From: a virus
Taxonomy: Duplodnaviria > Caudoviricetes
Length of the DNA stretch: 54,025 nucleotides
Direction: 5' to 3' (one strand)
IMG/VR virus record: IMGVR_UViG_3300030049_000021
Span: 1 to 54,025 of that record
Position numbers and translations under genes: made by a program. This document shows, piece by piece, positions 19,707-48,088 of the stretch (positions within the stretch are counted from its first letter, which is position 1; every line of letters starts with the position of its first letter). The notes beneath the pieces were generated by a model, which searched no databases, had not been told where the DNA came from, and saw only the letters and a program-made list of their open reading frames with translations.

Positions 19707-20282
19707 ATGAAGGAGCGCATACCGCTAGCCGAAGGCGTGAAGCTCGCCAATGAGGTCGTAGCGTTGCTCGAAACGTCGTGCGAGCGGCTAGAGGTCGCGG
19801 GAAGTATCCGGCGCCAAAAGGAAACTGTTGGTGACGTCGAGATCGTTTGCATTCCCCGATTCTCGACAGGCGATCCGCAAGGGCTTTTCGGTGACTATGC
19901 GGAGGATGTAAACCGGCAGTTAGAGCGCGTTCAACACCTTTTGGCTGACGGCACATTCGAGCATCGCCTAGACAAGAACGGCCATAAATGCTGCGGCGAA
20001 GGATGTCAGCGATTGCTTTACAAGGGCTTCGCACTGGACATTTTCCCTTGTGTGGGCACTTCGCAATACGGCGTCATCAAACTTATCCGCACGGGCTCCG
20101 GCGACTTTAACAAGCGGTTCGTGTTGCAGTGGTCGCAGGGCGGAACGATCCTCAATGTTGGGTTGCAGATCAAGGACGGCGGTCTTTATGATCGCGGGGT
20201 TTTGATCCCGACGCCAGAAGAGATTGACGTGTTTAATGCGGTCGGGTTGGCTTATCTTGAGCCGCAGGAGAGAGAATCATGA
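19707..20282 (+). CDS. Minimal family X DNA polymerase (pol-beta-like nucleotidyltransferase)
   Basis: AGSIRR.KETVGDVEIV, LDIF, RTGS..FN, EE.DVF...GL.Y..P..R; only 191 aa. Confidence 0.9.
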   Translation: MKERIPLAEGVKLANEVVALLETSCERLEVAGSIRRQKETVGDVEIVCIPRFSTGDPQGLFGDYAEDVNRQLERVQHLLADGTFEHRLDKNGHKCCGEGCQRLLYKGFALDIFPCVGTSQYGVIKLIRTGSGDFNKRFVLQWSQGGTILNVGLQIKDGGLYDRGVLIPTPEEIDVFNAVGLAYLEPQERES

Positions 20283-30947: not shown

Positions 30948-31022
30948 GGACGGTTCGCCTAGTGGTATGGCCCTAGAATTTGGATCTAGTACGCGGGTGT
31001 TCGATTCACTCACCGTCTGCCA
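30948..31022 (+). tRNA. tRNA-Gln(TTG)
   Basis: Acceptor ggacggt/accgtct, anticodon arm ctaga-atTTGga-tctag, T-arm gggtg-ttcgatt-cactc, encoded CCA. Confidence 0.85.
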
Positions 31023-31042
31023 ACTTTCGGTATCATTCACGT

Positions 31043-31120
31043 GCGGTCGTGGCTCAGTGGTATACAGCGCTGGTCTCCAAAACCAGTATTTCGCGCGTTC
31101 GAATCGCGCCGACCGTGCCA
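31043..31120 (+). tRNA. tRNA-Trp(CCA)
   Basis: Acceptor gcggtcg/cgaccgt, anticodon arm ctggt-ctCCAaa-accag, TTCGAAT loop, CCA end. Confidence 0.92.
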
Positions 31121-31126
31121 ACCTTT

Positions 31127-31190
31127 AGGGTATAGTCAAGCCCTCATGTTGCAAAACCTGAACCACTCGTATTTATCATCCTCGTACCTC
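31127..31190 (+). pseudogene. Degenerate tRNA-Cys(GCA) remnant
   Basis: gggtat/gtacct acceptor-like pair, tagtcaag D-arm start, catgt-tGCAaa-acctg anticodon-like arm. T-arm and CCA are lost. Confidence 0.45.
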
Positions 31191-31208
31191 AGTTATTGAC
31201 AACTGACG

Positions 31209-31299
31209 GGAAGGGTGGCAGAGTGATTTATTGCCTTAGTCTTGAAAACTAATAGTCGGTATGACCGACACCAGGGTTTGAATCCCTGTCCTTCCTCCA
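31209..31299 (+). tRNA. tRNA-Ser(TGA)
   Basis: Acceptor ggaaggg/tccttcc, ttagt-ctTGAaa-actaa, long variable arm gtcggt/accgac, CCA end. Confidence 0.9.
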
Positions 31300-31311
31300 A
31301 CTTTATTTCTT

Positions 31312-31397
31312 GCTAGGTTGGCCGAGTGGACGATGGCAGATGCCTGTAAAGCAGATCCGTAAAAAGCACGTAGGTTCGAATCCTACACCTAGCACCA
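31312..31397 (+). tRNA. tRNA-Tyr(GTA)
   Basis: Acceptor gctaggt/acctagc, loop ctGTAaa, T-arm gtagg/cctac, CCA end; anticodon stem has two G-A mismatches. Confidence 0.85.
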
Positions 31398-31407
31398 ACT
31401 ACATTTC

Positions 31408-31485
31408 GGGTCACTGGTGCAACTGGTAGACGCAAAAGGCTTAAACCCTTTCCAAGTCTGAGTTCGAATCTCAGGTGACCCACCA
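31408..31485 (+). tRNA. tRNA-Leu(TAA), short variable arm
   Basis: Acceptor gggtcac/gtgaccc, aaagg-ctTAAac-ccttt, T-arm ctgag/ctcag, CCA end. Confidence 0.9.
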
Positions 31486-31490
31486 CATAT

Positions 31491-31568
31491 CCCCTGCTGG
31501 GCAAATTGGTAAAGTCGTCTGATTTAGGATCAGAAGTTATCTCAGTTCAAGTCTGAGGCGGGGGACCA
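31491..31568 (+). tRNA. tRNA-Leu(TAG), short variable arm
   Basis: Acceptor cccctgc/gcggggg, tctga-ttTAGga-tcaga, T-arm ctcag/ctgag, CCA end. Confidence 0.9.
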
Positions 31569-31575
31569 ATTTCAC

Positions 31576-31665
31576 GGATGCGTGTCGGAGCGGCTTATCG
31601 AGCTTGATTGCTAATCAAAAGGGCTGAAACACGTCCCCCGAGTTCGAATCTCGGCGCATCCTCCA
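31576..31665 (+). tRNA. tRNA-Ser(GCT)
   Basis: Acceptor ggatgcg/cgcatcc, loop ttGCTaa, long variable arm, T-arm ccgag/ctcgg, CCA end. Confidence 0.9.
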
Positions 31666-33834: not shown

Positions 33835-35467
33835 ACAGTTAGAACGCATCAAGCAATTGATTGGCGTGAAGACTTCACGAAATCGGGTTACCTTCGCTGA
33901 CTTAAAGATCCGAACAAAGAGCAAGCAAATAATCCCTTTCGAGCCAAACTACATCCAACGCCAATATCTTAACAAGTTGTGTCCGCGATGGCGTGAAGGC
34001 GTATTTGCCCTAAAGGGCGTGAGAGACATCATACTCAAAGGTCGGCAACAGGGATTTTCGACGCTTATTCAGGCCATTTTCTTTTGCGAGACGCTAAATG
34101 GAGAGAACACCCAAACGGTTGTTCTAGCTCACGATTTAGAGTCGACGGAACGTATCTTCCAAATGGTACAGATTTTCTATGACAATCTTCCAGATCATAA
34201 GAAGCCGTTCGCCAAATATGCCTCGAAACGCATGTTTTATTGGCCGTCGATAAATTCTTACTACTCCGTGGGAACAGCGGGCGCTAAGACCTATGGGCGT
34301 GGCGGGACCATAAATAATGTCCACTTTTCAGAGGTCGCATTTGCCGAGTGTGCGGATTTGGTCGCATCGGCACTTCTCCAAGCGGTTCCGGTCGATGGAA
34401 ACGTTTTCGAGGAATCAACCGCAAACGGAGTCGGCAATTACTTCAGCGACGAATGGGAACTGTCGCGCAATGGAGAAAGCGCGTTTCGCCGCCACTTTTG
34501 CCCGTGGTTTGAAACTTCTGAATATCGGCTGGCAACCGGCGCGGAGTTCGTATGTACGGACGACGAGCAAAAGAAAGCCGAACAGTTCGGGCTTGATGAT
34601 GAGCAACTAAACTGGTATCGGACCAAGCGCAAGGAGCTAAAGGAAAAAGTGGCCCAGGAGTATCCTCACACTGAGGAGGAGGCATTTCTTTCGTCTGGAC
34701 ATCCCTACTTTGATCGAGACAAACTGACAGAGATCCTGGGGATGTGCAAAGACGCTATCCAGATCGAATCGCCCACTCCTACATCGAGGCTCGGTAAAGC
34801 GTGGACTAAACTAAAAGTCTGGAAAGTTCCAGTCGCTGGCCGGGGCTACATAATCAGCGCCGATACCGCCGAAGGACTGCCGGGAAAGAAAGGTGATGAA
34901 TCCGACTTTGATTCCGCATCGGTTTGGGACGCGGAAACATACGAGCAGGTAGCCCACCTCCATGGAAAATGGGATACCCACGAATACGGACTCATTCTCG
35001 CCGAACTTGGGGTCTGGTACAACACCGCATTGATAGGCGTGGAGCGAAATAATCACGGTCATGCTGTCATAAACTCAATTCTCCATGCAGCCAATTACCC
35101 TCCAATGAAGCCTGGATCATTTGGAGGTCTTTACTTCCACGAGGAATACGACGCGCACGGCAAGTTCTCAGCGAGAAAGCCCGGATGGCCAACAACGCCT
35201 AAGACTAAGTATTTCGCACTTGATGGCCTAGCTTCCACGCTAATCGAAGGTGACTCAATCATCAATTGCAAGGAAACCATCGCCGAAATGATGCGGTATG
35301 TTAAACTCCCAGGTGGGCAAGCTGGCGGCGAGGCCGGATCGCACGATGATAGAGTAATGGACGCGGCAATAGGAGATGTACTTTTGAAACTCGGTCTATG
35401 GAAAAAGACAAGAAATCCCGCTGCTGATGCCGTTGAGTTCTTTAAGCTCATGGGTGCCACTAAGTGA
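33743..35467 (+). CDS. terL: Terminase large subunit
   Basis: IILKGRQQGFST, GRGGT...VHFSEVAF, ESTANGVGN, nuclease SADTAEG, ERNNHG, HDD.V...AI. Confidence 0.95.
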   Translation: MSNNSPQISEKLKSELSSPQSVEALKKATPEQLERIKQLIGVKTSRNRVTFADLKIRTKSKQIIPFEPNYIQRQYLNKLCPRWREGVFALKGVRDIILKGRQQGFSTLIQAIFFCETLNGENTQTVVLAHDLESTERIFQMVQIFYDNLPDHKKPFAKYASKRMFYWPSINSYYSVGTAGAKTYGRGGTINNVHFSEVAFAECADLVASALLQAVPVDGNVFEESTANGVGNYFSDEWELSRNGESAFRRHFCPWFETSEYRLATGAEFVCTDDEQKKAEQFGLDDEQLNWYRTKRKELKEKVAQEYPHTEEEAFLSSGHPYFDRDKLTEILGMCKDAIQIESPTPTSRLGKAWTKLKVWKVPVAGRGYIISADTAEGLPGKKGDESDFDSASVWDAETYEQVAHLHGKWDTHEYGLILAELGVWYNTALIGVERNNHGHAVINSILHAANYPPMKPGSFGGLYFHEEYDAHGKFSARKPGWPTTPKTKYFALDGLASTLIEGDSIINCKETIAEMMRYVKLPGGQAGGEAGSHDDRVMDAAIGDVLLKLGLWKKTRNPAADAVEFFKLMGATK

Positions 35468-37830
35468 AAATCACCAAGACGCCGCTATTCGCCACATTTA
35501 AGCGCATTTTCCAAGACCTAGGCCCAGGCGCAGTTCAAAGGGCAATTCAGGAAGCCGGACCTAAAATACGTGAACAGGCCCGCATAGAAATGGCCCAGGA
35601 GATAGGGCGCGCCATGACTGGAGACTTCAATCTTCAGTCCATGGTTCCCCAGTCATATCCTGCGACACAAGGCAGCCCCCATCCCTTGTATGGTTACGAC
35701 TTCGCCAACTGGTTTGCAACTCCTTATAGCCCGCGAAGACGCCCAGACTCGCTAATCGACGTTCAAACTATCAGGCGCTTTGCGGACACATACGATATCG
35801 CCAGGTCGTGCATAAACCACCTGAAAAGAGAGGTGCAGGCCCAAAAATTTGCTATCGTTGCAAAAGATACAAAAGACACATCCAGGAGAACGAAATCAGA
35901 TATTGAAGACGCCTACACGTTCTTTACCAAAGACGGTGGGCTCGGCGAGAAGAATGAAGGCCGAAGGCATTACGAATTAAAGATGTTCGAGGACGTGTTG
36001 GTTCTAGGGTGCTACGCCAGTTATTACGAACTTAGCCGGTCCAGCGACATCCTAAGGGTTCTCAACATCGATGCGGCTACGATTAGGCCGCGTATGGACT
36101 ACTACGGATGGCCAGGACCAGGCGAGGATTGGTACGAACAATGGATTCAGGGGCTTATGGTGGGCGCGTTCAAACCTGAAGAAATCGAGTATGACGGCAC
36201 GTGGCCAACATCAAATAGCCCATGGTTCAAGAGTCCTATTGAGTGGCTTTTAGGTTCAATTCTCTCGGCACTCAAGGCCGATGAATGGAATCGGGCGTGG
36301 CTGACAGATGGTACGCAGCCTGGACAAACGATAACACTTCCCGAAGGCGAAGCATGGACGCCTCAAGCCTGCAAAGATTACGTCGAATGGCTGACTGCAA
36401 TGATGTCTGGGGATGCAAAAGCCCGTCAAAAGATGGTTTTTCTTCCCAAGGGCGCGCAAACGAAGGATAACAGCCGAAAGGACCAGGATTTTTCAGATTT
36501 CGAACTTTGGCTTGCCAAGAGAACCGGCGCTGTTTATGGAGTATCGCTCGCATCTATCGGATTTGAAGGATCTCAGTACAAGGTAAGCCAAGAAGGCAGT
36601 CAAAATCAGACATCTCAATTCGGCGCGGGCGCTTTGCTCGACCTTCGGAAAGAACACTACGACGGAATTTTAGCCAAACTCGGGTTCAATCATCTTGAAA
36701 TACTTAACGGCGAGACTGCCGAAGAGAAGCCGATAGAAAAGGCCCAGCGCCTATTTATCGCCACAGGAAACGTCGGATGGATGAGCCCAAGCCAGGCGTC
36801 TCAGGAAATGGGCGGCGAAGCGGTCGAGGGCGCTGATGAGATCATGGTGCTAAACACTTTCCAGCCGCTCAGCCAAGCAATGGCACCCCCTCCGGTCGTG
36901 GTTGATCTGCCTATACCGACAGATCCAACCAAACAGGCACCCGGGCAGCAAGCAGCCGCCCATCCTGGAAATTCAAAGACTACGGCGCATAAGGCGGCAG
37001 CCAAGGCCGATATTAAACGGTGGCAAACGAAAGCGGTGAAAAGGATTAAAGACGGCAGAAGCCCGTCATGTACCTTTGAGTCGGAGTATTTGAGCCCATC
37101 AACTATTGACATGCTTACACGTATTCTCGGCGGTTGCGATTCCCTAGAAATGGTGTCCCGGGCATTTAAGTTGGCCGAAGACCAGATCGACTCTGGCGAC
37201 GATGATTCAGACGATCAAGCAAAGAAAAAGGAGAAGCAAAGGCATCTTGTCGTACTGCTTCTTAACACGGTCGATGGTGCTCCAAGTGCCTTTGGGAATG
37301 CGATATCAAATCTTGAAACACAAAATCTGAGCGTGAAGGGCTTTGCGGACCAGGTAATCGAGGGATTGACGCCGTTGCATATCAAGGCGGCGACACTTGG
37401 ACGCGTTCGCGCAACCGGTGGGACTATGCCTGCGTTGCCATCAGACGCTGATATCGCACTAGGAACTCGTGTCGCAGACTCACAAAGGATTTATCTCGAA
37501 AAGATGGCAACTCAGATCCTAGCCGAAGAACTGAGCGACAAGCAGGTTGCAGACCGAATGAAACTCTACGGACAGCGAACGGTAGGGACGGCAAACGAAT
37601 CGTGGAAGGGCAACGTGGCTGATACAACTCTTATCAACTGGATAGACACGGGCGACAAATCGGAATGCGAAGACTGCCACGTACTTGCTGATAATGGCCC
37701 TTATACGACTGACACATTGCCCAGCGTTCCCGGCGACGGAGCAACCGAATGCCAGGTTCAGTGCCGGTGTTATCTCGAAACCGAGGGCGGTGAACGATCC
37801 TTCTATGATCCGGTCGACGAGATGCCGTGA
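35464..37830 (+). CDS. Portal protein fused to a MuF-like head morphogenesis domain
   Basis: Portal motifs (ID..TIRP, Y.Q, SP.E) in the first ~470 aa; C-terminal ECEDC and P.PG...T.C...CRC.L; follows terL. Confidence 0.85.
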   Translation: MKITKTPLFATFKRIFQDLGPGAVQRAIQEAGPKIREQARIEMAQEIGRAMTGDFNLQSMVPQSYPATQGSPHPLYGYDFANWFATPYSPRRRPDSLIDVQTIRRFADTYDIARSCINHLKREVQAQKFAIVAKDTKDTSRRTKSDIEDAYTFFTKDGGLGEKNEGRRHYELKMFEDVLVLGCYASYYELSRSSDILRVLNIDAATIRPRMDYYGWPGPGEDWYEQWIQGLMVGAFKPEEIEYDGTWPTSNSPWFKSPIEWLLGSILSALKADEWNRAWLTDGTQPGQTITLPEGEAWTPQACKDYVEWLTAMMSGDAKARQKMVFLPKGAQTKDNSRKDQDFSDFELWLAKRTGAVYGVSLASIGFEGSQYKVSQEGSQNQTSQFGAGALLDLRKEHYDGILAKLGFNHLEILNGETAEEKPIEKAQRLFIATGNVGWMSPSQASQEMGGEAVEGADEIMVLNTFQPLSQAMAPPPVVVDLPIPTDPTKQAPGQQAAAHPGNSKTTAHKAAAKADIKRWQTKAVKRIKDGRSPSCTFESEYLSPSTIDMLTRILGGCDSLEMVSRAFKLAEDQIDSGDDDSDDQAKKKEKQRHLVVLLLNTVDGAPSAFGNAISNLETQNLSVKGFADQVIEGLTPLHIKAATLGRVRATGGTMPALPSDADIALGTRVADSQRIYLEKMATQILAEELSDKQVADRMKLYGQRTVGTANESWKGNVADTTLINWIDTGDKSECEDCHVLADNGPYTTDTLPSVPGDGATECQVQCRCYLETEGGERSFYDPVDEMP

Positions 37831-39150: not shown

Positions 39151-39747
39151 ATGCCGCAGCTTGCAGAGATTTTTAGGGTTTGGAGTGGTAATGCTGCGTC
39201 ACCCGGAAAGACCGTAACCGCAAACGGTAATCTCGTCCAACTTAACGGTTCCGTCAATTCTCCGACGATTCCTGTAGGTTCGCTTGATATGCTCGATATT
39301 AACGCGAACGTGACGAGCCTGCGTGGCGTCTTGCCGACTATTACGTTCGTTTGGTCACGGATAGATCCATTTGGAAACGCCTTTCCGATGGCAACTACCG
39401 GGCTCAGCGCGGCCGGAAAGGCGACACTCGACATTGGCCCAGGTCTTTCGAACGGATTCAGCCCGGGTTCTGTTGGCCAGTTATCGTGGACTTTGGCTGG
39501 TACAGTAATTTCGACAACCGTAGGAACCGGTGCCAACTCTACAACTCAGAATCTGAGTTCAACGACCGGCATACTGGCTGGTGACTCCCTTTTCTTCCAT
39601 ACTGCAAATGTGACGGTGACTGTTGTTAGTGTCACTGATGGCAGTCACCTCGTCGTTAATACAGCGGTCAGTTCAACAAATGGCGAAACTGTGACAGTGC
39701 CAAACACGCCAGCGGCAACCATGACGATCTTCGGAGAAGGCAAATGA
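39151..39747 (+). CDS. Putative head decoration protein sharing a domain with the capsid insertion
   Basis: Beta-rich 198 aa; a 62-aa segment aligns ungapped to the MCP insertion. Confidence 0.65.
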   Translation: MPQLAEIFRVWSGNAASPGKTVTANGNLVQLNGSVNSPTIPVGSLDMLDINANVTSLRGVLPTITFVWSRIDPFGNAFPMATTGLSAAGKATLDIGPGLSNGFSPGSVGQLSWTLAGTVISTTVGTGANSTTQNLSSTTGILAGDSLFFHTANVTVTVVSVTDGSHLVVNTAVSSTNGETVTVPNTPAATMTIFGEGK

Positions 39748-39903: not shown

Positions 39904-41475
39904 ATGAGAAAAGAAAAGACAACCGGGCTTAACCTATTCTTCCCGATTACGAGGGTTGACGAAGAAACTCGAATAGTAGAAGGTGTGGCATTCGCTAACG
40001 AACAGGTTCAAGGTGACAAGCGCAAACTCCCTGCGTCGGTACTTGAGCGCGCTACACCTGACTACATGAAGTTCGCGGCTGTCCGTGAGATGCACGGCAA
40101 GAATGCAGCAGGCACCGCTCTACCGCTAGACCCGGAGATCGCCCGTCAGTGCGGCGTATTCTGGGAAGACCGAGACGGAAAGCGCGTGGCCGTCTTACGC
40201 TCGTACATTTCTGACGACGCGGCATTAAAGAAAGCACGCGACGGCACCTATAAAGGCTACTCCGTTGGCGTCATGCCTACCTCGGTTCGTGGAAACAATG
40301 TGGAGTCATGCACTTGGTACGAGACCTCACTTGTTGACCGTCCAGCTGACCCAGACGCTCTGCTTTCGATTGCCCGCGCGGATGGCATTCAAGAAGAGGG
40401 AGAATGCGCCATTCTCGACGATTACACCAGCGACGATGATCTGCTTTCTCGAATGTGGGGTGACGGAGATTTTGAGCCTATTCTAAGAGCCGAGGATGAC
40501 GGTCTGGGTGAAATTATCGAACGGCAAAAGACAAAGTGGACAAAAGAAAAGCGTGATGCCCTGCCGGTTAAGAACTTCGCTTGGCCAGAAAAAAGGAAGT
40601 ATCCAATTGAAGATCAAAAGGATGTCGACGACGCGGCGCGCCTAATCGGTCGAGCGCCCGAAGCAATGCGATCGAAGATCAAGTCGCGTATCATGTCTAT
40701 CGCGAAGAGGCTTGACCTCAAGATTCCAGAGTCTTGGTCAACGGATGCAAGCGAGCGAACCGAGACCGATTTTTCGATCATGCGCGGCGCATTTGCCAGC
40801 ATGATGACGAGCATGATGCCTTGGCGTCTCAGGTACATGGCATTTGACACCCTTTCAGATGCTATCGGGATGATTCAAAGCACCACCTATGCTGATCCGT
40901 CTCAGATGGAACACGACGTTAGGACCGCTCTCGACGAATTCGCGGAATTCATCATGCCAATCGTCAAAGACAAGTCCTGGCCAGACGCCGACTGCTTTGA
41001 TGATATGGATAGTGACGAGGATGCCGAGCGCGGAGCGACGCCGACCCTCCTTCGCTTAATCCAAGCGAGTCGCAATCAGACGTTCCTCGAAAGAAGGGCT
41101 ACTGAATCAGAAGCGGTAGCGATTGAGCGACTAGAAAAGATTTCAACTCTCGAAAGAGAATTGAGTACAGCAAATAGTGAACTCCTTACAGTGCAAGGGC
41201 TTGAAAGAGCCGCAAGAGAAGAAGTAGCGAAGCTGTCAAAAGAGCCACAACGTAGACCACCAGTTCGAATTACCGAAGGTATAGAGCGCAAATGGGGATC
41301 TATGTTGCCAGACGACGACGCAGCGGAAATCAAGCGTCTTCAGGACGAACACGCGGGCATTATGTCCCGCAGACTATCCATGACGGCAGGAGAGCGTGAA
41401 AATGCTTCTCACCGGCTAATCGTGCTCGAACAGCAGATAACCCGCCTCGGCGGCAGAGTCTACGCAAACCAATAG
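39904..41475 (+). CDS. Prohead (HK97-type) protease with inserted DUF6582-like domain and coiled-coil scaffold
   Basis: V.G.A, VREMH...AAG, G.YKGYSVG, E.SLVDRPA.P; insert R.ALP...FAWP..RKYPI.D...V..A...IGRA; C-terminal heptads. Confidence 0.85.
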   Translation: MRKEKTTGLNLFFPITRVDEETRIVEGVAFANEQVQGDKRKLPASVLERATPDYMKFAAVREMHGKNAAGTALPLDPEIARQCGVFWEDRDGKRVAVLRSYISDDAALKKARDGTYKGYSVGVMPTSVRGNNVESCTWYETSLVDRPADPDALLSIARADGIQEEGECAILDDYTSDDDLLSRMWGDGDFEPILRAEDDGLGEIIERQKTKWTKEKRDALPVKNFAWPEKRKYPIEDQKDVDDAARLIGRAPEAMRSKIKSRIMSIAKRLDLKIPESWSTDASERTETDFSIMRGAFASMMTSMMPWRLRYMAFDTLSDAIGMIQSTTYADPSQMEHDVRTALDEFAEFIMPIVKDKSWPDADCFDDMDSDEDAERGATPTLLRLIQASRNQTFLERRATESEAVAIERLEKISTLERELSTANSELLTVQGLERAAREEVAKLSKEPQRRPPVRITEGIERKWGSMLPDDDAAEIKRLQDEHAGIMSRRLSMTAGERENASHRLIVLEQQITRLGGRVYANQ

Positions 41476-41488
41476 GAAATTTAAGAAC

Positions 41489-42940
41489 ATGAACTTTTCA
41501 GGAGTAAATTTTGACCCTCGGCTTGGCAGCTTCCGAGCTGCACATCTATCGGAAGGATGGGCAACCGGTGCTTCGCCTTTGCCGATTTCGCGCGGCATTT
41601 ATACGGCAGGAATGACCGACGACATCCAGCGGCGAACGGCCATGATGGAGCGCGGAGAATTCGGAGGTGTCGATCCTTCTCAATTCTTGATGCAACTCCA
41701 GATGGACGTGCTTGCAAATATCAGCCGCGCGCAGACATCGGGCAACATCCCAACGCGGCAAGACCTTGAAGCCCCGGCGACGATGATTATTCCGCTGGAT
41801 ACACCGGTGCGAAATAAGTTGCCGCGTTCAATCGGATCGGGTCTTGCGTCTCAGTGGTTCACCGAGACGAGTCTAGGCGGCGGCTACGGCGTCTCCACAA
41901 CCATACCAAGCGGTACAGCGTCTGCGACACAGACATTTGCAAACACCAATGGTATGCAGCCGGGAATGTCTTTGTTCTTCTCGCTCTCGAACATCTATGC
42001 AATTGTTTCCAGCGTCACGAGTTCAACCGTTGCTGTAATGACGAGTTCGATTACGACCACTACGAACGACGTGGTCACCATGGGACCATACGCAGAGCTT
42101 GGACAGAATCCTCAGCAGGCATTCTTTGCGGAGTCTGGCGCCCCTGCCAACGCCTCGGCGGTTTACCTTGAGATCACGAAGAGCTACAAACTGCTCGGCA
42201 CACTCGGCTCAATTACTGGTTTGGCTATGGCGGCTGGTGCCACCTTCGATAATCAGTTGGCTGAAGAGAAGCGGGCGGCTATCTTTCGAACGATGCTTAC
42301 GGAGGAGTTCGCTCTTATCAACGGTAGCTCGACAAGCGTTCTACCTCCGTTTGGTGACGGCACCAACGCTCTTGGATTTGATGGTTTCATCAACCTCATT
42401 AGCACGGCAAACGGTACGCCGGGTTCGCACATCCAAACAGCGGTGGGAGCCTTAACTCTTGCCCACCTAGATGCGCAGACGACCCGAGTTCACAATGACG
42501 GCGGACGCGATCAGTACATCATCTGCAACGCTCAAGAATCCCAGTCGATGGTTCATCTGGCAACCGGGTCTGGATCGACGAATCGAATCGTCACGCAGAC
42601 CGCTAATATCACACTTGGCGCGACGGCGGCGTTCTACATGCAGCCAGTAAGCGGGCAACTTATCCCGATTCTGACATCGAGGTTCTGCCCAGCGGGAACA
42701 ATTTTGTTCTGCTCTGAGCGAGGTCCAGACGGTATGGTCGCGGCTGACGTTCGCGTTCTGCCTCAAGTTCAGTTACCAGAGCTGGCACCTAACCAACCAA
42801 TTCAAGGCTATACCGCGCAGGAACTTGCGCCTGCAATCGCATCGCCGCAGGTATATCCGTTCATCGTGAGTGTCTACGAAGTTCTTCGAATGAAGAACAA
42901 CTACGTGTTCGCCAAGAGCACTGGCGTGACGGCGGTCTAG
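41489..42940 (+). CDS. Major capsid protein (HK97 fold) with surface insertion domain
   Basis: Follows the protease. R.DLE......P.DTP.RN.LPR..G.G, F.ESG.P, EE..LING, FDG, C-terminal YEVL. Confidence 0.88.
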   Translation: MNFSGVNFDPRLGSFRAAHLSEGWATGASPLPISRGIYTAGMTDDIQRRTAMMERGEFGGVDPSQFLMQLQMDVLANISRAQTSGNIPTRQDLEAPATMIIPLDTPVRNKLPRSIGSGLASQWFTETSLGGGYGVSTTIPSGTASATQTFANTNGMQPGMSLFFSLSNIYAIVSSVTSSTVAVMTSSITTTTNDVVTMGPYAELGQNPQQAFFAESGAPANASAVYLEITKSYKLLGTLGSITGLAMAAGATFDNQLAEEKRAAIFRTMLTEEFALINGSSTSVLPPFGDGTNALGFDGFINLISTANGTPGSHIQTAVGALTLAHLDAQTTRVHNDGGRDQYIICNAQESQSMVHLATGSGSTNRIVTQTANITLGATAAFYMQPVSGQLIPILTSRFCPAGTILFCSERGPDGMVAADVRVLPQVQLPELAPNQPIQGYTAQELAPAIASPQVYPFIVSVYEVLRMKNNYVFAKSTGVTAV

Positions 42941-42995
42941 TCTGAACAACAACCCGCTTGGAGTGATATCTACGCGGGTTGATACGGAGCAAAAC

Positions 42996-43367
42996 ATGGT
43001 TCAAGAAAGACAATTAGTAAATACATTCAAGGCACCTCCAGTCGGATCTCAGGAAACGGCCGCCAACTTCAAAAAGTTCACCGTAGAACGGTCGGACTTC
43101 ATTGAGTTGCCGGGATGCCTCAGTGTTACCGAGATTCGGTTAGACGGGCACATAATCCCGCCATACGAAGACCGGGAAGTTCTTGCAAATACAACGGGAG
43201 CGACGAAGCCTATCAGGGTCCAACTTTACAGCTTGCAGGATTCGATTCATGGGCCGATCCTTATGAGGTCTGAGCAATCAAACGACGGTGCTTGGCAGGC
43301 AGGATCTACCATCTGGGTTTCCGGTACATGGCAAGACGATCAGCCTGCCACGAGCGGCAAGAAGTAA
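42996..43367 (+). CDS. Head-associated hypothetical protein
   Basis: Between the MCP and adaptor genes; GGAG Shine-Dalgarno. Confidence 0.6.
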   Translation: MVQERQLVNTFKAPPVGSQETAANFKKFTVERSDFIELPGCLSVTEIRLDGHIIPPYEDREVLANTTGATKPIRVQLYSLQDSIHGPILMRSEQSNDGAWQAGSTIWVSGTWQDDQPATSGKK

Positions 43368-43376
43368 TACGGCAAC

Positions 43377-44054
43377 ATGGCAGAAAGCGCATACCCCACG
43401 GATAGCCAAATTTCGACATTTGTGACTAACTCTGGGGTTGTTCTGCCATCCGGATACGTTTTCACAAACTACGGAGCGGCGGCGTCCGCGTGGTGGGAGG
43501 AGCAAACCGGCTACCAGCCGTTTTTGCAGACCGCAAGCGCGACTAGGACGTTTAATCCTCCAGGTGATCAACCTAAGAATCGCTCGTGGACTAACCTGCA
43601 GTGGGGCGGCGGCACCATTCTAAACCTCAATGCCGCAATAGCTAATCAGGCCGCCTTTGTGTCTCTCAGCGTTCAAGGCGTTACTGCCGCGTGGACTTTA
43701 GGCACAAATTTTTGGCTTGAGCCAATCAACGCTCCAGCGCAAGGCCAACCTTACACTCGCATTCGATTCTCCTATCCAATATATGGCGCGGCGTACTGCG
43801 TTTCTGTTACCGCTTTATGGGGATGGGGCGCAACAATACCGGAGGATGCTTTCCAAGCCATACTTCGAAAGGGCGCTCAGATGGCGATGGTCGATATTCT
43901 TGAGGGAATCGCCACTGCAACGCTGTCCATCTATCAGGGCGACGAGCGGTTTGTTATTGAACCGCGCATTCTGATGAAGTCGGGTGAGGGATGGGGGCTT
44001 TATGCAGATAGGGCGGCTGAGCGGTACAAATTCCGAAATTGGGGGCTGATTTGA
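43377..44054 (+). CDS. Head-tail adaptor (gp6/gp15-like)
   Basis: Y.T, A....E..TG..F, V.VT..WGW...IP.D...AIL. Confidence 0.75.
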   Translation: MAESAYPTDSQISTFVTNSGVVLPSGYVFTNYGAAASAWWEEQTGYQPFLQTASATRTFNPPGDQPKNRSWTNLQWGGGTILNLNAAIANQAAFVSLSVQGVTAAWTLGTNFWLEPINAPAQGQPYTRIRFSYPIYGAAYCVSVTALWGWGATIPEDAFQAILRKGAQMAMVDILEGIATATLSIYQGDERFVIEPRILMKSGEGWGLYADRAAERYKFRNWGLI

Positions 44055-44416
44055 ACCTTCAGTCAGTGGTTCTGCAGAGATGCCGCGCGGCCAGCACGGG
44101 CAATATGACGAGCACGGGGCAGCAGCTTTTACTTACCACAACGAAGAACCCGGACGGCTCGGATGCGTCAACCTTTACCGCGCAGACGCCGACATTCAAG
44201 TGCAACCTGCAAGAGGTAAGGGGCAACTCTTTGCCGCTTCCGTTCTCAGATATTGATCTAGCGTTCTACAAACTGTTCACGCCTTACACCATCGTGTTTA
44301 AGGCGCGAGATAGGGTCACGGTTGACGGAATAACCTACGAGGTTCAGGACACAGACCTTTACAGATCGCCCGACCAGATTAGTCATGTCTATCTGATATC
44401 GAGAACACAGCTATGA
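44051..44416 (+). CDS. Head closure/stopper protein
   Basis: L..PY......DRV.VDG..YEV pattern; gene position. Confidence 0.7.
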   Translation: MNLQSVVLQRCRAASTGNMTSTGQQLLLTTTKNPDGSDASTFTAQTPTFKCNLQEVRGNSLPLPFSDIDLAFYKLFTPYTIVFKARDRVTVDGITYEVQDTDLYRSPDQISHVYLISRTQL

Positions 44417-44955
44417 TTGATCTCCAAGTTCAGGCAAACTTTCCAAGGCTAGCCGCTTTCTCAAGGAACCTGCAGGATGCGATGATAGTTGGCGTTCAGG
44501 CGGCAGCGGTTGAGGTTGAGCTCATCGCTATTTCGGAAGTGCTACTTTACGAAGCATACGACACTTACGCTCTCATGGAGTCGATTTACGTCAGCGTCTA
44601 CGGCTATTCGACTTACGAGGAAAAGGCGGACATGGCAGCGGACGCCGCATTAAACAACCCAACGAACTGGCCAGATATTCGGCAGACAAAAATATTTAAT
44701 GGTGATGATCCATATTTAGTTTTGGATCCGAAAGTAGAGAGCCAATCGCGGTACGACGCGTGGGTAGCGGTCGCAGCAGCGCACGGGAAATATGTCGAGA
44801 ACGGCTATCTTTCTTGGTACAACAATTGGGTGCCCGCTCGCCCATTCTGGCAGGCCACAGCAGACCGCGCACGGCCAGAAGTGCTTAGAATACTAAGCGA
44901 AGCGTTAAATCAGGCACAATACGGAAGAGCTACGGCGCTTCCGGCAATTCCTTAA
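44413..44955 (+). CDS. HK97 gp10-like neck/tail completion protein
   Basis: DT.AL..SI, YVE.G......PARPF...A. Confidence 0.75.
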   Translation: MIDLQVQANFPRLAAFSRNLQDAMIVGVQAAAVEVELIAISEVLLYEAYDTYALMESIYVSVYGYSTYEEKADMAADAALNNPTNWPDIRQTKIFNGDDPYLVLDPKVESQSRYDAWVAVAAAHGKYVENGYLSWYNNWVPARPFWQATADRARPEVLRILSEALNQAQYGRATALPAIP

Positions 44956-44978
44956 AATTCATGTAACATAGGCGCAAT

Positions 44979-45395
44979 ATGCACATCTCACGAAGATCGG
45001 TTTTAACTTCAGCTTTCCTGGCCTCTCTCGTCGCGCTTATTCCGCAATATTTCCGAAAGGCGTTCACACCTAAGCACCCAGAGATAACGCTTGCGTCGCT
45101 TGACCGCGAGTCCGACTTCGGTCCCGACGACATCCTCCAATCGATTGTCGTATCGAAGCACGACTCAGACGAAATGGTCGAGATTGCGACAGGAAGGCGC
45201 GGAGGACATGCATCGCGCAGAATCGTTGATCCAGCCACTAACAATTCCATACCTCCGACAGTGACAGGGTTCATGAGTTGGAGACATGGCACCCTTGCAA
45301 AGGTCATTGCAAGCGACGGCATTCAAAAGGGACACGTTCTCTTTGTCGTAAAAGGGAAGGATATTTACACGGTAGAAAAGGAAATCACTGTCTAA
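44979..45395 (+). CDS. Twin-arginine-signal protein paralogous to the capsid A-domain
   Basis: MHISRRSVLTSAFLASLVAL; the remainder aligns to the MCP segment encoded at 42452-42712. Confidence 0.75.
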   Translation: MHISRRSVLTSAFLASLVALIPQYFRKAFTPKHPEITLASLDRESDFGPDDILQSIVVSKHDSDEMVEIATGRRGGHASRRIVDPATNNSIPPTVTGFMSWRHGTLAKVIASDGIQKGHVLFVVKGKDIYTVEKEITV

Positions 45396-45836
45396 ATGTA
45401 CGATCAGCAAGCAGTCGATACTTGGGTTTACGGGCAACTTTCAGCCGACTCTACGCTGATAGCCATGCTTCCTTCCGGTGCGTCGAGCATCTATAACCAA
45501 AAGCCACCCGCTGGCGTTTTGCCGCCATACATCATTTTCAATGCGGTCCCGTCTCCTGATACAAAGACCAATGGTAACGTCCGCGTGATATCAACGTGGA
45601 ATGTGTCGGCGCAAATGGTTATAATTGATCCAGACACAGGAAAGCCCGTTGCGGACAGTGCGGCGGCTCTCATTGACCAAGACATGTTTACCGGTGGCGT
45701 TTCTCAAAATGGTTTTTGGATCATTTGTTCACGAACCAAGGCAATTAACCTTGCGCCGGACCAAAGGGACCGTCTGTACCGCTATGTCGGCGGGAACTAC
45801 AAGATTGATCTAAGGCCAATGTCTCAGCCGAGCTAG
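45396..45836 (+). CDS. Tail terminator (gp17/DUF3168-like)
   Basis: VY..L.AD..L..M......IY...PP.....PYIIF. Confidence 0.8.
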   Translation: MYDQQAVDTWVYGQLSADSTLIAMLPSGASSIYNQKPPAGVLPPYIIFNAVPSPDTKTNGNVRVISTWNVSAQMVIIDPDTGKPVADSAAALIDQDMFTGGVSQNGFWIICSRTKAINLAPDQRDRLYRYVGGNYKIDLRPMSQPS

Positions 45837-45850
45837 GAAACGAAAACGAA

Positions 45851-46303
45851 ATGGCAATCACTTATGAAGCCGCAGCTAGTCTGCTTGAGGATGTGGTCGG
45901 GACTGTTAGCTATACGGCTGGTACCGGCGATACGGGAGTTTTATCTACTTACGCAACGTCAATAATTGTCAACCTCGACAAGGTGACTATCAAACGCTCG
46001 ATGGACAATTCCGACCATAGCGGAGGACAGAATCCGGAAAAGATCATGCGTGGGACAAAGTTCGACACGCAGACAGACATTGACCTAAAGTTCTACGTTG
46101 ACGCCAATACGGCTGTTTTTTTGCCAGGTCTTCAGGTTAAGTTTGCCGCAGTCGTCACCATCGGAGAGCACAACGTCGCAGTAACGATTTTCGGAATCAT
46201 CACTGATATCGACAATGAATTCGCTGGTCCTTCAACAATGAAGATCAGCATCAAGCCTTATGCTGTTGGCGGAAACGCCTCATACACAGCGGTCTACACC
46301 TAA
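45851..46303 (+). CDS. Major tail tube protein
   Basis: 150 aa, beta-rich, between the terminator and chaperone genes; strong leader AGGAAACGAAAACGAAATG. Confidence 0.7.
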   Translation: MAITYEAAASLLEDVVGTVSYTAGTGDTGVLSTYATSIIVNLDKVTIKRSMDNSDHSGGQNPEKIMRGTKFDTQTDIDLKFYVDANTAVFLPGLQVKFAAVVTIGEHNVAVTIFGIITDIDNEFAGPSTMKISIKPYAVGGNASYTAVYT

Positions 46304-46308
46304 ACATC

Positions 46309-46749
46309 ATGGCAAGTCTCAGGTCGCAACTCGGAAAAAAACTATCCTACAAAACGGCTGTGGCCGAATACCAGGGAGAAACATATCAGTTCGGAGGGTT
46401 CCCTTCGAGTTCCATGGTTCTGGACCAAGGAATGCCTGACGCTAAGGCCGAAGGCATTTGCAAATTGTGGAATGTCCAATTCTGCCCTGAAGGTGCAGAC
46501 GGGCGGAAGATTAGCCCAGTTCCCGAGACATTTACGCCCGGGAACCTTCCTCAAATCAAAGCTGTTCTGCATTATCTAATCCAGGCAGAAGGCGAAGATC
46601 CGCTTCAGCTAACGGACATTGCCGACATCTTTTCGACTTCCCCGGGACTATTTGCAAATCTCTACGCAGCGGCGATGAATGTTATGACCGCATCCAATGT
46701 CGTGGAAGTGGCAGCGGGAAACTTGCCAGCCGAAGAGACTGCGACCTAG
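46309..46749 (+). CDS. Tail assembly chaperone (gpG-like)
   Basis: Position before the tape measure; slippery G GGA AAC at 46716-46722. Confidence 0.8.
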   Translation: MASLRSQLGKKLSYKTAVAEYQGETYQFGGFPSSSMVLDQGMPDAKAEGICKLWNVQFCPEGADGRKISPVPETFTPGNLPQIKAVLHYLIQAEGEDPLQLTDIADIFSTSPGLFANLYAAAMNVMTASNVVEVAAGNLPAEETAT

Positions 46750-46910
46750 AGGTATGGGTTGTTAAAACCACTGGCAAACCTACTTCAGTTCTTCGGCGTG
46801 AAGGTTGGACTTCCCAAGAAATAGCGGATGCGGTGGGAGCGGGGTATATATTTCAAGCGGAGTTCGAGCAACGCATGGTTGAAATAATAAAAAGGTTGGT
46901 GCCGAGATAA
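46716..46910 (+). CDS. -1 frameshift extension of the tail chaperone (gpGT-like)
   Basis: The -1 frame is open from the slippery site to TAA at 46908-46910 (LASRRDCDLEVWVVKTTGK...IIKRLVPR). Confidence 0.8.
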   Translation, partial: GKLASRRDCDLEVWVVKTTGKPTSVLRREGWTSQEIADAVGAGYIFQAEFEQRMVEIIKRLVPR

Positions 46911-48088
46911 CCCCTGATATCCTCGCGATCCTGATCACGGTTCGAGGTGCGCAGCTGGCTGTATCTGCCGTCAATGGCGTTACCGGTGCCTTAACGAGCG
47001 CGCAAGTTGCCGCTCGGGCGTTAATCCCAATTCTTCGCGCTTTGGCGGTTGCCGTCGTCTTTCTTGGCGCTTCGCTAAAGGCCGCTGGCGAGGACGAGTC
47101 GATGCGCCTTCAGCTTCAGGCGCTAACGCATGACGGCAGTATTGCGATGTCCCAGATACGGGCCATACGTGCTGAATCAGAACGCGGGTTGTTCGACAAG
47201 GAGGAACTTTTTCAAGCCAGAAAGATTTTTGATGAAACCGGCGCTTCGATCAAGGAACTTTTGCCGCTATCAGAAGAGTTGGCCCTGCGATCCAACAAGG
47301 GCCTTGATGCTACGTCTCGGATTTTTGCGTCACTAGAAGGCGGCGGTATCGCACGTCTTGGCGCCGTTCTTCGTTCTGCCGGTCTAACCGTCGATGCTTT
47401 GAGAGGCGCTGGACTTGATGTAACCAAGTCGTATCAGGTCAAGAGTTCCCCCCAGGAAACACTAAGGGTTCTCAAAGAGCTTCTAAGCAAAGATAGTCTT
47501 TCCGATGCGCTAGGCGGATCTCTGAACGCTAGTTCTAAGGGAGCAATCGCGGCATTAAAGGATCTGTTCAGAAGCATAGGTGACGGTCTTCTGCCGGTCA
47601 TCAAGCCCGCACTTTACTTGCTAACAGGACTGCTGAAGACCTTCACATATCTCAATGACATTACCCACGGATGGTTCGGGAACATCCTTCTTGCTGTGGG
47701 CGCGCTCAAGACGATCGGTGTTGTTCTGCCCATCATTGTCGATCTAGTCGACTGGTTTAAGGTTCTCGCATTCTGGGACGCGCTTTTGGTGGCGCTCAAT
47801 AACCCTTGGGCTGCAATCGCAAATGCCATTGGCGCAGTCGTAACTGCCATCAAGGCGCTTGCAAGCGCAGAAAAACTGGCTGCTGCATGGGCCGCAATCC
47901 TTGATGCGCTAGATGGAAACTGGGTCGCGCTTGGCGCGGGCGCTGCCGTAGCCGCTGCTGTAGGAATCGCTTGGCATTTTGGAAATGCTCAGGAGGGCGA
48001 GAAAGACGGTCCTGCCGCTGAGCGTCCACGTAGACGCTCCGACGTTGAGAATTTACTACAACGTCAACGGGCTAAGCAGTGGGCCTAG
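46907..48088 (+). CDS. Tape measure protein (short, about 393 aa, probable ATA start)
   Basis: Ala/Leu-rich helical protein after the chaperones. Frame open from 46883. PDILAILITVRG resembles a tape-measure N-terminus. The track start at 47042 is probably internal. Confidence 0.8.
   Translation: MTPDILAILITVRGAQLAVSAVNGVTGALTSAQVAARALIPILRALAVAVVFLGASLKAAGEDESMRLQLQALTHDGSIAMSQIRAIRAESERGLFDKEELFQARKIFDETGASIKELLPLSEELALRSNKGLDATSRIFASLEGGGIARLGAVLRSAGLTVDALRGAGLDVTKSYQVKSSPQETLRVLKELLSKDSLSDALGGSLNASSKGAIAALKDLFRSIGDGLLPVIKPALYLLTGLLKTFTYLNDITHGWFGNILLAVGALKTIGVVLPIIVDLVDWFKVLAFWDALLVALNNPWAAIANAIGAVVTAIKALASAEKLAAAWAAILDALDGNWVALGAGAAVAAAVGIAWHFGNAQEGEKDGPAAERPRRRSDVENLLQRQRAKQWA

Follow-up and report, generated by a model that had tools for sequence, protein, structure and literature searches.

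The locus and its coding potential

The window, that is, the whole 54,025-nucleotide stretch of phage DNA analysed here, carries among its head-tail joining genes a small gene whose product, P0001, resembles part of the major capsid protein (MCP) of the same phage. The genes and features on which the argument draws are listed below.

41489–42940, + strand: MCP gene (P0002, 483 aa), the probable source family; PF17236 SU10_MCP, E 4e-11
42452–42709, + strand: MCP residues 322–407, the A-domain core matched by the target; BLASTP and own-genome search
44413–44955, + strand: upstream neighbour, Neck1 / tail-completion-like; phrog_5, E 8.1e-8
44979–45395, + strand: target gene P0001, 138 aa, stop codon included; ORF list and translation
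44988–45005, + strand: twin-arginine-type motif S4-R5-R6-S7-V8-L9, read from the sequence; fits Z-R-R-x-Phi-Phi throughout
45000–45041, + strand: hydrophobic region V8–I21; Kyte–Doolittle
45042–45083, + strand: basic linker P22–E35 (R26, K27, K32), read from the sequence; without an AxA-type site
45084–45344, + strand: core I36–F122, probably A-domain-derived; BLASTP against MCP 322–407, shuffle tests, own-genome search
45345–45392, + strand: C-terminal tail V123–V138; no secure MCP counterpart, outside the BLASTP alignment
45396–45836, + strand: downstream neighbour, tail completion (gp17-like); PF11367, E 7.3e-5, 23.3 bits, cut-off 24.5

The reading frame runs from an ATG at 44979 to a stop codon at 45393–45395, exactly where the first-pass annotation had placed it, and encodes 138 aa with the N-terminus MHISRRSVLTSAFLASLVAL. 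In frame, its codon-usage log-likelihood per codon is +0.169; off-frame readings score −0.36 and −0.41, the antisense ORF 0.005 and the adjoining genes 0.12–0.31. A gap of 23 nt separates its start from the stop of the gene at 44413–44955, and its TAA directly abuts the ATG at 45396. Because codon usage is gene-like in this frame only and the frame is tightly packed into a late operon, we are very confident that P0001 is a real gene. The proposed placement between neck and tail-terminator genes also stands, with phrog_5 upstream and PF11367 downstream, the latter just below its cut-off.

A −10 element of its own had been suggested as well, for which we find no basis: a promoter scan of 42900–47100, made with the sigma-70-type consensus only, gave no site near 44979. 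On the + strand, 43520–47043 contains no terminator-like site. As for the marks of a moron, P0001 lacks a promoter and terminator of its own by the sigma-70-type scan, and it does show presence and absence between syntenic relatives (L003, see below). The missing promoter makes it ill-suited to be an exclusion gene expressed in the lysogen. RNA-library contigs cover parts of the MCP gene, 42930–43200, 45416–45640 and 45772–46414, and miss 44979–45395; contigs cannot show absence, so they are silent on the expression of P0001.

Relationship to the major capsid protein

An alignment made by eye had counted about 27 identities in about 88 positions between P0001 and the MCP. BLASTP reproduces it, pairing residues 36–122 of P0001 with MCP 322–407 at 28/92 identities (33.5 bits, E 1e-6). 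The Smith–Waterman score of the pair is 80, and in these pairwise statistics the similarity exceeds all shuffles: shuffled P0001 scores on average 31.7 against the MCP (sd 4.7, max 60, n = 2000), shuffled MCP reaches at most 58 against P0001 (n = 2000), and a score of 80 is attained by 0/4000 shuffles (2000 per set), with a Gumbel p of ~1e-6. A search within the genome recovers the pair in both directions (E 2.3e-4 and E 1.4e-3), and when the window's 185 stop-to-stop frames of 80 aa or more are ranked, the MCP frame comes first with 80, ahead of a runner-up at 47. BLASTP, shuffle tests and the ranking of own-genome frames agree in supporting P0001 as a separately encoded relative of this phage's MCP.

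Scored against 121 MCP-family sequences, P0001 is matched best by this very MCP (80; next 62; median 37), and for 15 of the 28 identities the shared state occurs in no more than 8 of the 32 other MCPs compared. The comparison of P0001 with the MCP family by hhalign gives E 0.0074 and a probability of 5% in an unchanged register, and an HMM of 119 MCP homologues, built without the phage's own MCP, gives P0001 6.9 bits and rank 1/1001, the best shuffle reaching 5.7. Once the phage's own MCP is left out, P0001 resembles the family weakly in both comparisons.

This weak family-level signal would suit a likeness that arose by chance, P0001 then being an unrelated small secreted or membrane protein, for example a cadherin-like beta domain. 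A HMMER search of 1.84 billion representatives points the same way, with hits to P0123 (E 2.1e-5) and P0124 (E 1.2e-4), and in BLASTP P0001 reaches 34.3 bits against P0123, a giant protein of Cadherin_3 repeats. The P0123 score, however, is a sum over 6 near-identical repeats in a target that was picked from 1.84 billion. A profile of 18 P0123 repeats gives P0001 4.8 bits and rank 2/1001, with one shuffle above it, and Pfam Cadherin_3 (PF16184) is unmatched by P0001 at E ≤ 10. The MCP match, in contrast, arose inside one 54-kb genome, 33 points over every other frame and with p ~1e-6, and we hold a chance likeness to be highly improbable. We rejected the cadherin-like lead (P0123, P0124) as a chance resemblance that the repeats had amplified.

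We consider a derivation of P0001 from the MCP, as the sequence comparisons suggest, to be very likely. Of the 28 identities, which fall within 81 aligned residues, only 7 are encoded by identical codons. The codon alignment has 107/243 identical nucleotides, and a local DNA alignment of the target with the MCP gene is no better than shuffles. With DNA-level similarity to the MCP gene gone, the copy would be old, and the few shared codons together with the missing DNA match imply that protein similarity has outlasted synonymous saturation. Read in the BLAST register, residues that are invariant or near-invariant in the MCP family are replaced in P0001 at H326, Q330, G338, S353, G362, G377, P386, R398 and F399. 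By our tally, 17 of the 28 residues common to both proteins are hydrophobic or glycine, and the retained residues look like fold core rather than interfaces. The loss of many MCP invariants argues mildly against a faithful mimicry of capsomer contacts.

Domain layout and structure models

The AlphaFold model of the MCP (pLDDT 70.8) matches 352 PDB chains at E ≤ 0.001 in Foldseek, including SU10, HK97 and encapsulin shells. In this model the matched segment comprises helices 324–336 and 348–360 and strands 340–346, 367–369, 380–384, 391–396 and 404–411, all of which come after the spine helix 253–278. The helix-strand-helix-four-strand block forms the core of the HK97-fold A-domain, as had been supposed earlier from its position. 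The AlphaFold model of P0001, which was seeded with MCP segments, has helices 34–44 and 60–70 and strands 52–59, 81–84, 94–99, 106–112 and 120–125. MAFFT places the tail V123–V138 inconsistently, and pLDDT is <50 for residues 129–138. The same program pairs part of the linker P22–E35 with MCP 311–326, an alternative register that retains the family-invariant T and H.

P0001 thus shows homology to the A-domain segment of the MCP, which is a partial relationship and not family membership. Pfam returns no family for it at E ≤ 1 or at E ≤ 10, PF17236 included, and the HK97 fold is incomplete, without counterparts of the spine helix 253–278 and of the P-domain strands 442–468. A search of BFVD gave nothing at E ≤ 0.001 and no stand-alone structural analogue, its top rows being full-length MCPs and a few small uncharacterised proteins (E 0.36–1), and an Atlas search with residues 30–138 gave no usable match. 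Complex prediction of MCP 223–483 with P0001 34–138 (best score 0.07, mark 0.32, no controls) neither favours nor disfavours binding.

The N-terminus and probable membrane targeting

Two forms of the Tat motif, Z-R-R-x-Phi-Phi and S/T-R-R-x-F-L-K, are given in PMC13673990; with the second, P0001 agrees at S, R, R and L. Mean Kyte–Doolittle hydropathy reaches 2.21 in the 15-mer that begins at residue 7 and 1.56 in the best 19-mer. Judged by its sequence, V8–I21 is as long as the hydrophobic region of a signal peptide and rather short to be a classical transmembrane helix; AlphaFold places a helix at 10–18 with pLDDT <50. A Tat-like pattern was defined as [ST]RRx[FLVIM][LIVMF] within residues 1–25 and, after it, a 13-mer whose mean hydropathy is 1.8 or more. 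Of the 231 window ORFs of 60 aa or more, the target alone shows it, as do 0/1919 ORFs of related loci. The RR pair is kept in 3/3 full-length cluster members, themselves 98–100% identical.

The twin-arginine signal named in the first-pass annotation holds in part: motif and hydrophobic region fit, whereas Tat profiles of Pfam and NCBIfam are unmatched at E ≤ 10 and a cleavage site is missing. The curated Tat-signal profiles concerned are PF10518 and TIGR01409. Tat-signal models in these two collections are very short, and HMMER filters drop most weak matches to them. Neither an AxA-like nor a lipobox site follows the hydrophobic region, and P0001 contains no cysteine. According to PMC13673990, RR signals that stay uncleaved and serve as anchors form an established class, the class III Tat substrates. 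The language-model neighbours of P0001 at 0.79–0.81 include Tat-signal proteins in 3 clusters among 5 rows, a lead only, and these neighbours vanish when residues 1–29 are removed. In hydrophobicity the segment exceeds typical Tat signals. The charges around it are balanced, with RR before and R26, K27 and K32 after, which leaves the topology of P0001 ambiguous. Taken together, P0001 is probably targeted to the membrane, and its dependence on Tat is conceivable though doubtful. Should the Tat reading hold, the domain would lie outside the cytoplasm and away from capsid assembly, so the two ideas of export and of a part in capsid assembly, both raised in the first-pass annotation, conflict with each other.

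The A-domain copy might instead work in the cytoplasm, free or tethered to the inner membrane, by binding MCP, capsomers or a host capsid sensor. Its nearness to the phage's own MCP rather than to the family consensus suits a co-adaptation with the own capsid, it would be produced alongside the late genes at a time of plentiful MCP, and the balanced flanking charges permit a C-terminus inside the cell. The replaced invariant and near-invariant MCP residues speak against such a mimic, as do the 17 of 28 common residues that are hydrophobic or glycine and hence point to fold core rather than interfaces. RR plus hydrophobic region is moreover a signature of export and not of cytoplasmic retention, and no relative has such a gene. 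We therefore regard a cytoplasmic mimic as unlikely, and the roles proposed for it, a tether or nucleator of assembly, a decoy for capsid-sensing immunity or a poison of related phages' capsids, fare no better. Distinctly unlikely is a membrane-anchored late capsid mimic that would engage capsid proteins or capsid-sensing defences at the membrane, be it as a decoy for capsid-triggered abortive infection, as a dominant-negative poison of co-infecting relatives or as a procapsid dock.

Distribution, relatives and host

The only homologues of P0001 are variants that are 98–100% identical, 4 cluster members from one near-clonal phage population. They differ by four amino-acid variants, of which L20I, K32R and L38I are conservative and S40W is the fourth. 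Nothing beyond P0001 itself was found by tblastn in 50,697 phage records, nor in searches of IMG/VR contigs and of metagenome contigs. A word-indexed search of 5.8 billion proteins gave no homologue beyond these variants at near lengths, and at longer lengths 428 candidates with 0 at E ≤ 10. There is no P0001 family in Pfam, PHROGs, NCBIfam or PADLOC, and PDB sequences contain no homologue (best E 0.16). Against 30 related loci, tblastn of P0001 reached E 0.46 at best, and a gene for an A-domain fragment occurs in 0/28 related loci. In the closest syntenic relative, L003, where synteny holds on both sides, the slot of P0001 is occupied by unrelated ORFs (135 and 59 aa). The MCP of the window itself has no match in the phage collection by tblastn at 1e-5; its IMG/VR relatives are found by an alignment-based scan and not by a single-sequence scan.

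All of the sequencing runs that contain the stretch (24/24) are peat metagenomes, and no target variants occur in 3 near-identical DNA runs (4/24 runs examined). Related genome loci lie in Armatimonadota MAGs in 8/10 cases, and TatC is present in 5/5 Armatimonadota MAGs bearing related capsid genes. The phage is of siphovirus type and comes from peat, and its hosts are likely Armatimonadota. Searches with Pfam and PHROG of 12 early- and middle-region proteins plus the gene at 39151–39747 revealed no integrase or repressor.

So narrow a distribution would also be expected of a functionless young gene or relic, a partial capsid duplication that is translated by way of the late operon and whose hydrophobic N-terminus is incidental. 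In favour of it are the restriction to one near-clonal population with its 4 members at 98–100% identity, the 0 variants in 3 DNA runs, the many MCP constraints lost and a slot that varies among relatives. Yet the frame of 138 codons is open and gene-like in codon usage although synonymous sites are saturated, apparent fold-core residues persist, the RR-plus-hydrophobic pattern is found in 0/1919 background ORFs, and 3/4 amino-acid variants are conservative. On balance, we give a relic little credence.

A second gene with a capsid domain

Similarly, the gene at 39151–39747 aligns with MCP 110–198 at 33/95 identities (E 5e-9). Its counterparts adjoin related MCPs and are 40–59% identical to the MCP of their own genome in L003, L004, L023 and L024. 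Like P0001, it is a separate gene with one MCP domain that resembles the MCP of its own genome. It differs in that its domain is the beta-rich insertion and not the A-domain, that it is conserved in several relatives, that it has neither RR nor a hydrophobic N-terminus, and that it is located upstream of the protease/scaffold gene (39904–41475).

The existence of this second separate gene with a capsid domain, together with domain copies adjoining related MCPs and the location of P0001 among head-tail joining genes, would fit a virion structural or assembly protein (decoration, cement or neck-associated) whose hydrophobic helix is buried in an interface and is no signal. P0001 is not conserved in L003 or other relatives, however, whereas the structural genes around it are, and soluble virion proteins do not usually have an unbroken hydrophobic stretch of 15 residues straight after RR. 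A structural role of this kind appears very unlikely.

Probable origin and possible role of P0001

About half of our weight rests on a composite reading in which P0001 is a real gene, originated from the MCP and is targeted to the membrane. It would have begun when part of this phage's MCP gene was duplicated, the copy comprising ~90 residues from the A-domain core of the HK97 fold with its two helices and beta-sheet. Fast divergence would have followed, during which the copy shed most MCP-specific invariant residues and retained mainly core residues. The outcome would be a lineage-specific accessory gene, presumably co-transcribed with the late head-tail genes; its accessory status is supported by the unrelated ORFs in the L003 slot and from the lack of an A-domain fragment in the 28 related loci. 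The RR motif, the 15-residue hydrophobic segment and the basic linker, which appear to stand as a leader before the domain, would bring the N-terminus to the cytoplasmic membrane. Since neither a signal-peptidase site nor a lipobox is present, it may stay there as an uncleaved signal anchor resembling class III Tat substrates, with the capsid-derived globule on the outer (periplasmic) face. Speculatively, P0001 could act as an accessory factor at the level of the envelope, for example against superinfecting phages, and not as a part of the capsid.

In this composite reading, P0001 would offer a clean example of gene birth within a phage: one sub-domain was copied from the structural protein under the strongest constraint, freed from shell-building and joined to an export-type leader. 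If the domain is exported, the capsid fold would be reused at the cell envelope; if it faces the cytoplasm, P0001 might mimic the capsid and bear on capsid-sensing immunity or phage competition. A membrane capsid mimic, if true, would stand for a kind of phage accessory protein, derived from structural genes, that is not known to have been described. Together with the gene at 39151–39747, P0001 suggests that peat phages, probably of Armatimonadota, repeatedly swap domains between the MCP and small genes. The weight of the case is limited by its occurrence in one near-clonal population, by its lack of homologues and by the want of a known cultured host. A limited full-text search of the literature, which is not proof of absence, found no description of a stand-alone or exported capsid-fragment gene, and a search of the same limited kind found none of a phage Tat substrate like P0001.

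Comparison with known systems

Rieske Fe-S proteins are class III Tat substrates with uncleaved N-terminal RR anchors, according to PMC13673990. P0001 resembles this class in its short positive start, the Z-R-R-x-Phi-Phi motif, the hydrophobic region and the absence of AxA and lipobox sites. Unlike these substrates, it is encoded by a phage, lacks a cofactor-binding domain and matches no Tat profile of Pfam or NCBIfam at E ≤ 10.

HK97 gp15 and lambdoid Cor are small envelope-targeted proteins of moron or superinfection-exclusion type in the structural regions of siphophages. P0001 shares with them its small size, an N-terminal signal (in P0001 a putative one) of membrane or export type and a variable slot in the late structural region. 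It differs in that there is no sequence relationship, that no promoter or terminator of its own was found and that its body is capsid-derived, a feature that we have not seen described for proteins of this type.

Reuse of the HK97 capsid fold outside the virion is also seen in encapsulins, which are among the structural matches. These are cellular shells that keep the whole fold, whereas P0001, with only one sub-domain, cannot assemble into a shell of HK97 type. Second copies of a capsid gene within one phage genome are also exemplified by gp24, the vertex protein of T4, which is paralogous to gp23, the major head protein. An in-genome duplication of a capsid gene lies behind it, as probably behind P0001, and in both cases the second protein is closest to the own MCP. 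Capsid paralogues such as T4 gp24 are nevertheless full-length HK97-fold subunits built into the capsid, while P0001 consists of ~90 A-domain residues, without P-domain, E-loop and N-arm, behind an export-like N-terminus.

The capsid-related gene and its surroundings

The gene encoding the 138-aa product P0001 combines a gene-like frame with paralogy to the axial (A) domain core of the phage's own major capsid protein (MCP), a rare twin-arginine (RR)-hydrophobic leader and a position in a variable slot. The window is a complete IMG/VR virus record of 54,025 bases, and downstream of the MCP gene it encodes head-tail genes, a small major-tail-like gene and a tape-measure-like protein.

9518-10663 (-), 380-aa protein with a Gp3-like recombination-directionality-factor domain (PF18897, E 1e-12)
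19707-20282, 191-aa protein with DNA polymerase beta thumb (PF14791) and palm (PF14792, just below its cut-off)
30948-31665, tRNA cluster of seven genes (Gln, Trp, Ser, Tyr, Leu, Leu, Ser), with the packaging and structural module close behind it downstream
35464-37830, portal
39151-39747 (+), second separate gene with an MCP domain, 198-aa product
39904-41475, protease/scaffold-like protein
41489-42940, SU10-type MCP (PF17236, E 4e-11)
44413-44955, Neck1-like gene (phrog_5, E 8e-8), its stop 23 nt before the target ATG
44979-45395 (+), target gene, ATG to TAA, 138 aa (P0001)
45396-45836, tail-completion-like gene (PF11367, E 7e-5, just below cut-off), its ATG abutting the target stop

No integrase was found among the window proteins scanned. 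The N-terminus of the 523-aa protein at 39904-41475 matches phrog_21715 (E 5e-24), and the protein matches no protease family; judged by position, it is probably a protease-scaffold fusion. A homologue lies beside the MCP in 29 of 30 related loci compared, in all but locus L024 at a distance of no more than about 1.1 kb upstream; only at locus L022 does the MCP extend past the contig end.

The target ORF is very probably a real gene. With codon usage trained on 18 confident genes, its log-likelihood is +0.169 per codon in frame, compared with -0.36 and -0.41 in the other two frames, 0.005 for a 130-aa antisense ORF and 0.12-0.31 for nine neighbouring genes, the MCP and 39151-39747 among them. 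Since the stop-to-stop frame holds just four codons upstream of the ATG and the next methionine is M66, the RR-hydrophobic N-terminus is part of any full-length product. The first-pass annotation had proposed a -10 element of the gene's own, which we do not retain: TAACAT at 44964-44969 lacks a matching -35 element, and a promoter scan of 42900-47100 returned two sites against 3.4 expected, none near the target. No terminator-like site was found on the + strand between 43520 and 47043, and we infer co-transcription with the late operon.

Relationship to the major capsid protein

BLASTP aligns P0001 36-122 with MCP 322-407 at 28/92 identities (33.5 bits, E 1e-6), through the same residue pairs that had earlier been matched by eye. 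The Smith-Waterman score of 80 (z about 10, Gumbel p about 1e-6) was reached by none of 2000 shuffles of each partner, which peaked at 60 and 58, and an own-genome search recovers the pair both ways (E 2.3e-4 and 1.4e-3). When the window's 185 open frames of 80 aa or more are compared with P0001, the MCP comes first and the second-best scores 47. The resemblance is real.

Against the wider MCP family the signal is much weaker than against the own MCP. Comparison by hhalign gives E 0.0074 at a probability of 5%, and a family HMM of 119 MCP homologues, the phage's own left out, gives 6.9 bits (rank 1 of 1001, top shuffle 5.7), both in the register of the own-MCP match. Among 121 family sequences the own MCP scores highest (80; next 62, median 37), and 15 of the 28 identities are states shared by no more than 8 of 32 other MCPs, a count inflated by an alignment optimised against the own MCP. 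Codon-aligned nucleotide identity is 107/243, with the same codon at 7 of the 28 identical residues, and local DNA alignment of target and MCP genes is no better than shuffles. On our reading, the target gene probably arose when part of the lineage's own capsid gene was duplicated, long enough ago for synonymous sites to be saturated, and then diverged fast at the protein level with the fold core kept.

The copied segment and its divergence

The MCP was modelled with AlphaFold from a 33-sequence alignment (pLDDT 70.8); in this model the spine helix at 253-278 is followed by H324-336, E340-346, H348-360, E367-369, E380-384, E391-396 and E404-411, and then by long strands at 442-468. Foldseek matches this model to 352 PDB chains at E<=0.001, including SU10, HK97 and encapsulin shells. 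The A domain of the capsid fold holds a five-stranded sheet, according to PMC5701804. MCP 322-407 is, in the model, the two-helix, multi-strand core after the spine helix, so that the earlier positional assignment to the A domain was right.

As P0001 has no diverged homologues, its alignment was seeded with C-terminal MCP segments (window and 26 loci), and its model cannot serve as independent evidence of homology. The elements (H34-44, E52-59, H60-70, E81-84, E94-99, E106-112, E120-125) follow the order of the MCP block, at low confidence (mean pLDDT 58.5; about 56-78 over 40-128, below 50 at 1-32 and 129-138). Against the PDB, Foldseek returned nothing at E<=0.001, the first 11 rows being SU10 and Pa223 capsid chains at E 0.09-0.3; in BFVD no match was significant, nor did any small free-standing protein make a convincing analogue.

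In the BLAST register P0001 keeps R366, G389, S397, G403, T323 and D328, and replaces the family-invariant or near-invariant H326, Q330, G338, S353, G362, G377, P386, R398 and F399. An alternative MAFFT register of the first helix, setting AFTPKH against ALTLAH, retains the family-invariant T323, H326, R333 and G338, which leaves a margin of about 8 residues on where homology begins. By tally, 17 of the 28 residues common to both proteins are hydrophobic or glycine. This conservation looks like that of a fold retained while capsomer contacts were not.

Distribution and a second capsid-related neighbour

The exact P0001 sequence occurs on 38 contigs, and its 90%-identity cluster has four members, of which three are full-length and vary by L20I, K32R, L38I and S40W. 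A HMMER pass over 1.84 billion representatives otherwise matched two giant repeat proteins, which we reject as homologues: the matches are chance multiplied by repeats, and P0001 has no Cadherin_3 match. All 24 public runs containing the region come from peat metagenomes. The gene itself is restricted to a single, near-clonal population of peat phage. Run X19, one low-depth contig set, carries 36 unrelated letters between 45339 and 45305, inside the gene, and two of its contigs break at 45310-45334; an artefact of the assembly graph, or a variant rare in that sample, may explain this.

The closest syntenic relative, locus L003 (MCP 60% identical), was compared for ten other genes spanning the stretch from the protease/scaffold gene (39904) to the large tail gene (48270), and a recognisable homologue of each is present. 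In place of the target gene, flanked by the Neck1-like and tail-completion genes, it has unrelated ORFs:

10587-10994 of L003, 135 aa, looks beta-rich
10996-11175 of L003, 59 aa

The position is thus variable and accessory, and in one lineage the target gene occupies it. A second A-domain fragment was found in none of 28 related loci, each searched with its own MCP within the fetched flanks.

Residues 90-183 of the 39151-39747 product match MCP 110-198 (33/95 identities, E 5e-9), a beta-rich insertion (pLDDT 66-89 in the model); the product has no Pfam, PHROG or PADLOC family match. At four related loci a neighbouring gene copies the insertion domain of its own MCP at 40-59% identity:

L003 4405-4599
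L004 5484-5681
L023 4473-4706
L024 12520-12693

The pattern hints that the MCP and a small neighbour have exchanged sequence repeatedly or evolved in concert.

Armatimonadota MAGs hold 8 of 10 related capsid loci in species-representative genomes, so the host probably belongs to that phylum. The other two are L023 (a 289,781-base contig in an "uncultured archaeon" MAG) and L027 (a Nitrospira MAG), labels that may stem from misbinned contigs or from a broader set of hosts for these phages.

The N-terminal leader

PMC13673990 gives a general Tat pattern, Z-R-R-x-Phi-Phi, which P0001 S4-R5-R6-S7-V8-L9 matches, and the Berks pattern S/T-R-R-x-F-L-K, matched at S, R, R and L. The uninterrupted hydrophobic run that follows averages a hydropathy of 2.21 over 15 residues and 1.56 over 19, which makes it signal-peptide-sized; a basic stretch (R26, K27, K32) comes next, and P0001 contains neither an AxA-type cleavage site nor a cysteine. 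The strict pattern, [ST]RRx[FLVIM][LIVMF] with a hydrophobic stretch behind it, occurs in one of 231 window ORFs, the target, and in none of 1919 ORFs of related loci, of which a looser rule of RR plus hydrophobicity catches 11. Among the five protein-language-model neighbours listed at 0.79-0.81 are three Tat-signal clusters (Fe-hydrogenase small subunit, TAT_signal, Rieske N-terminal domain), which disappear once residues 1-29 are removed; at such scores they are a lead only. TatC is present in all five Armatimonadota MAGs with related capsid genes.

The Tat signal proposed by the first-pass annotation has motif fit, rarity and hydrophobic run in its favour; against it, none of the Tat-signal profiles, very short models for which HMMER filters discard most weak hits, matched P0001 at E<=10, and typical Tat signals are less hydrophobic than this run. 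Membrane targeting appears moderately likely from these features and Tat dependence rather doubtful. The charges flanking the run are balanced, so that the sequence alone gives no topology. As a Tat signal, the leader would stay uncleaved and act as an anchor, like the class III signals of PMC13673990.

Possible role and relation to known systems

Less likely are the cytoplasmic roles suggested earlier, in which P0001 would tether or nucleate capsids at the membrane, act as a decoy for capsid-sensing immunity or poison the capsids of competing phages; an export signal suits them badly, as does the replacement of residues invariant among MCPs. In the main reading, P0001 would be co-expressed late, targeted to the cytoplasmic membrane and kept there as an uncleaved anchor with its domain outside; an envelope-level accessory role, for example exclusion of other phages, is speculative.

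In a limited full-text literature search, no A-domain fragment standing alone with a leader of its own was described. Full-length capsid paralogues are known, as is reuse of the HK97 fold by cells. Uncleaved RR anchors are likewise known (PMC13673990). The capsid-fragment observation is solid, and we rate the target gene as a combination of known kinds of event, gene duplication and leader acquisition.
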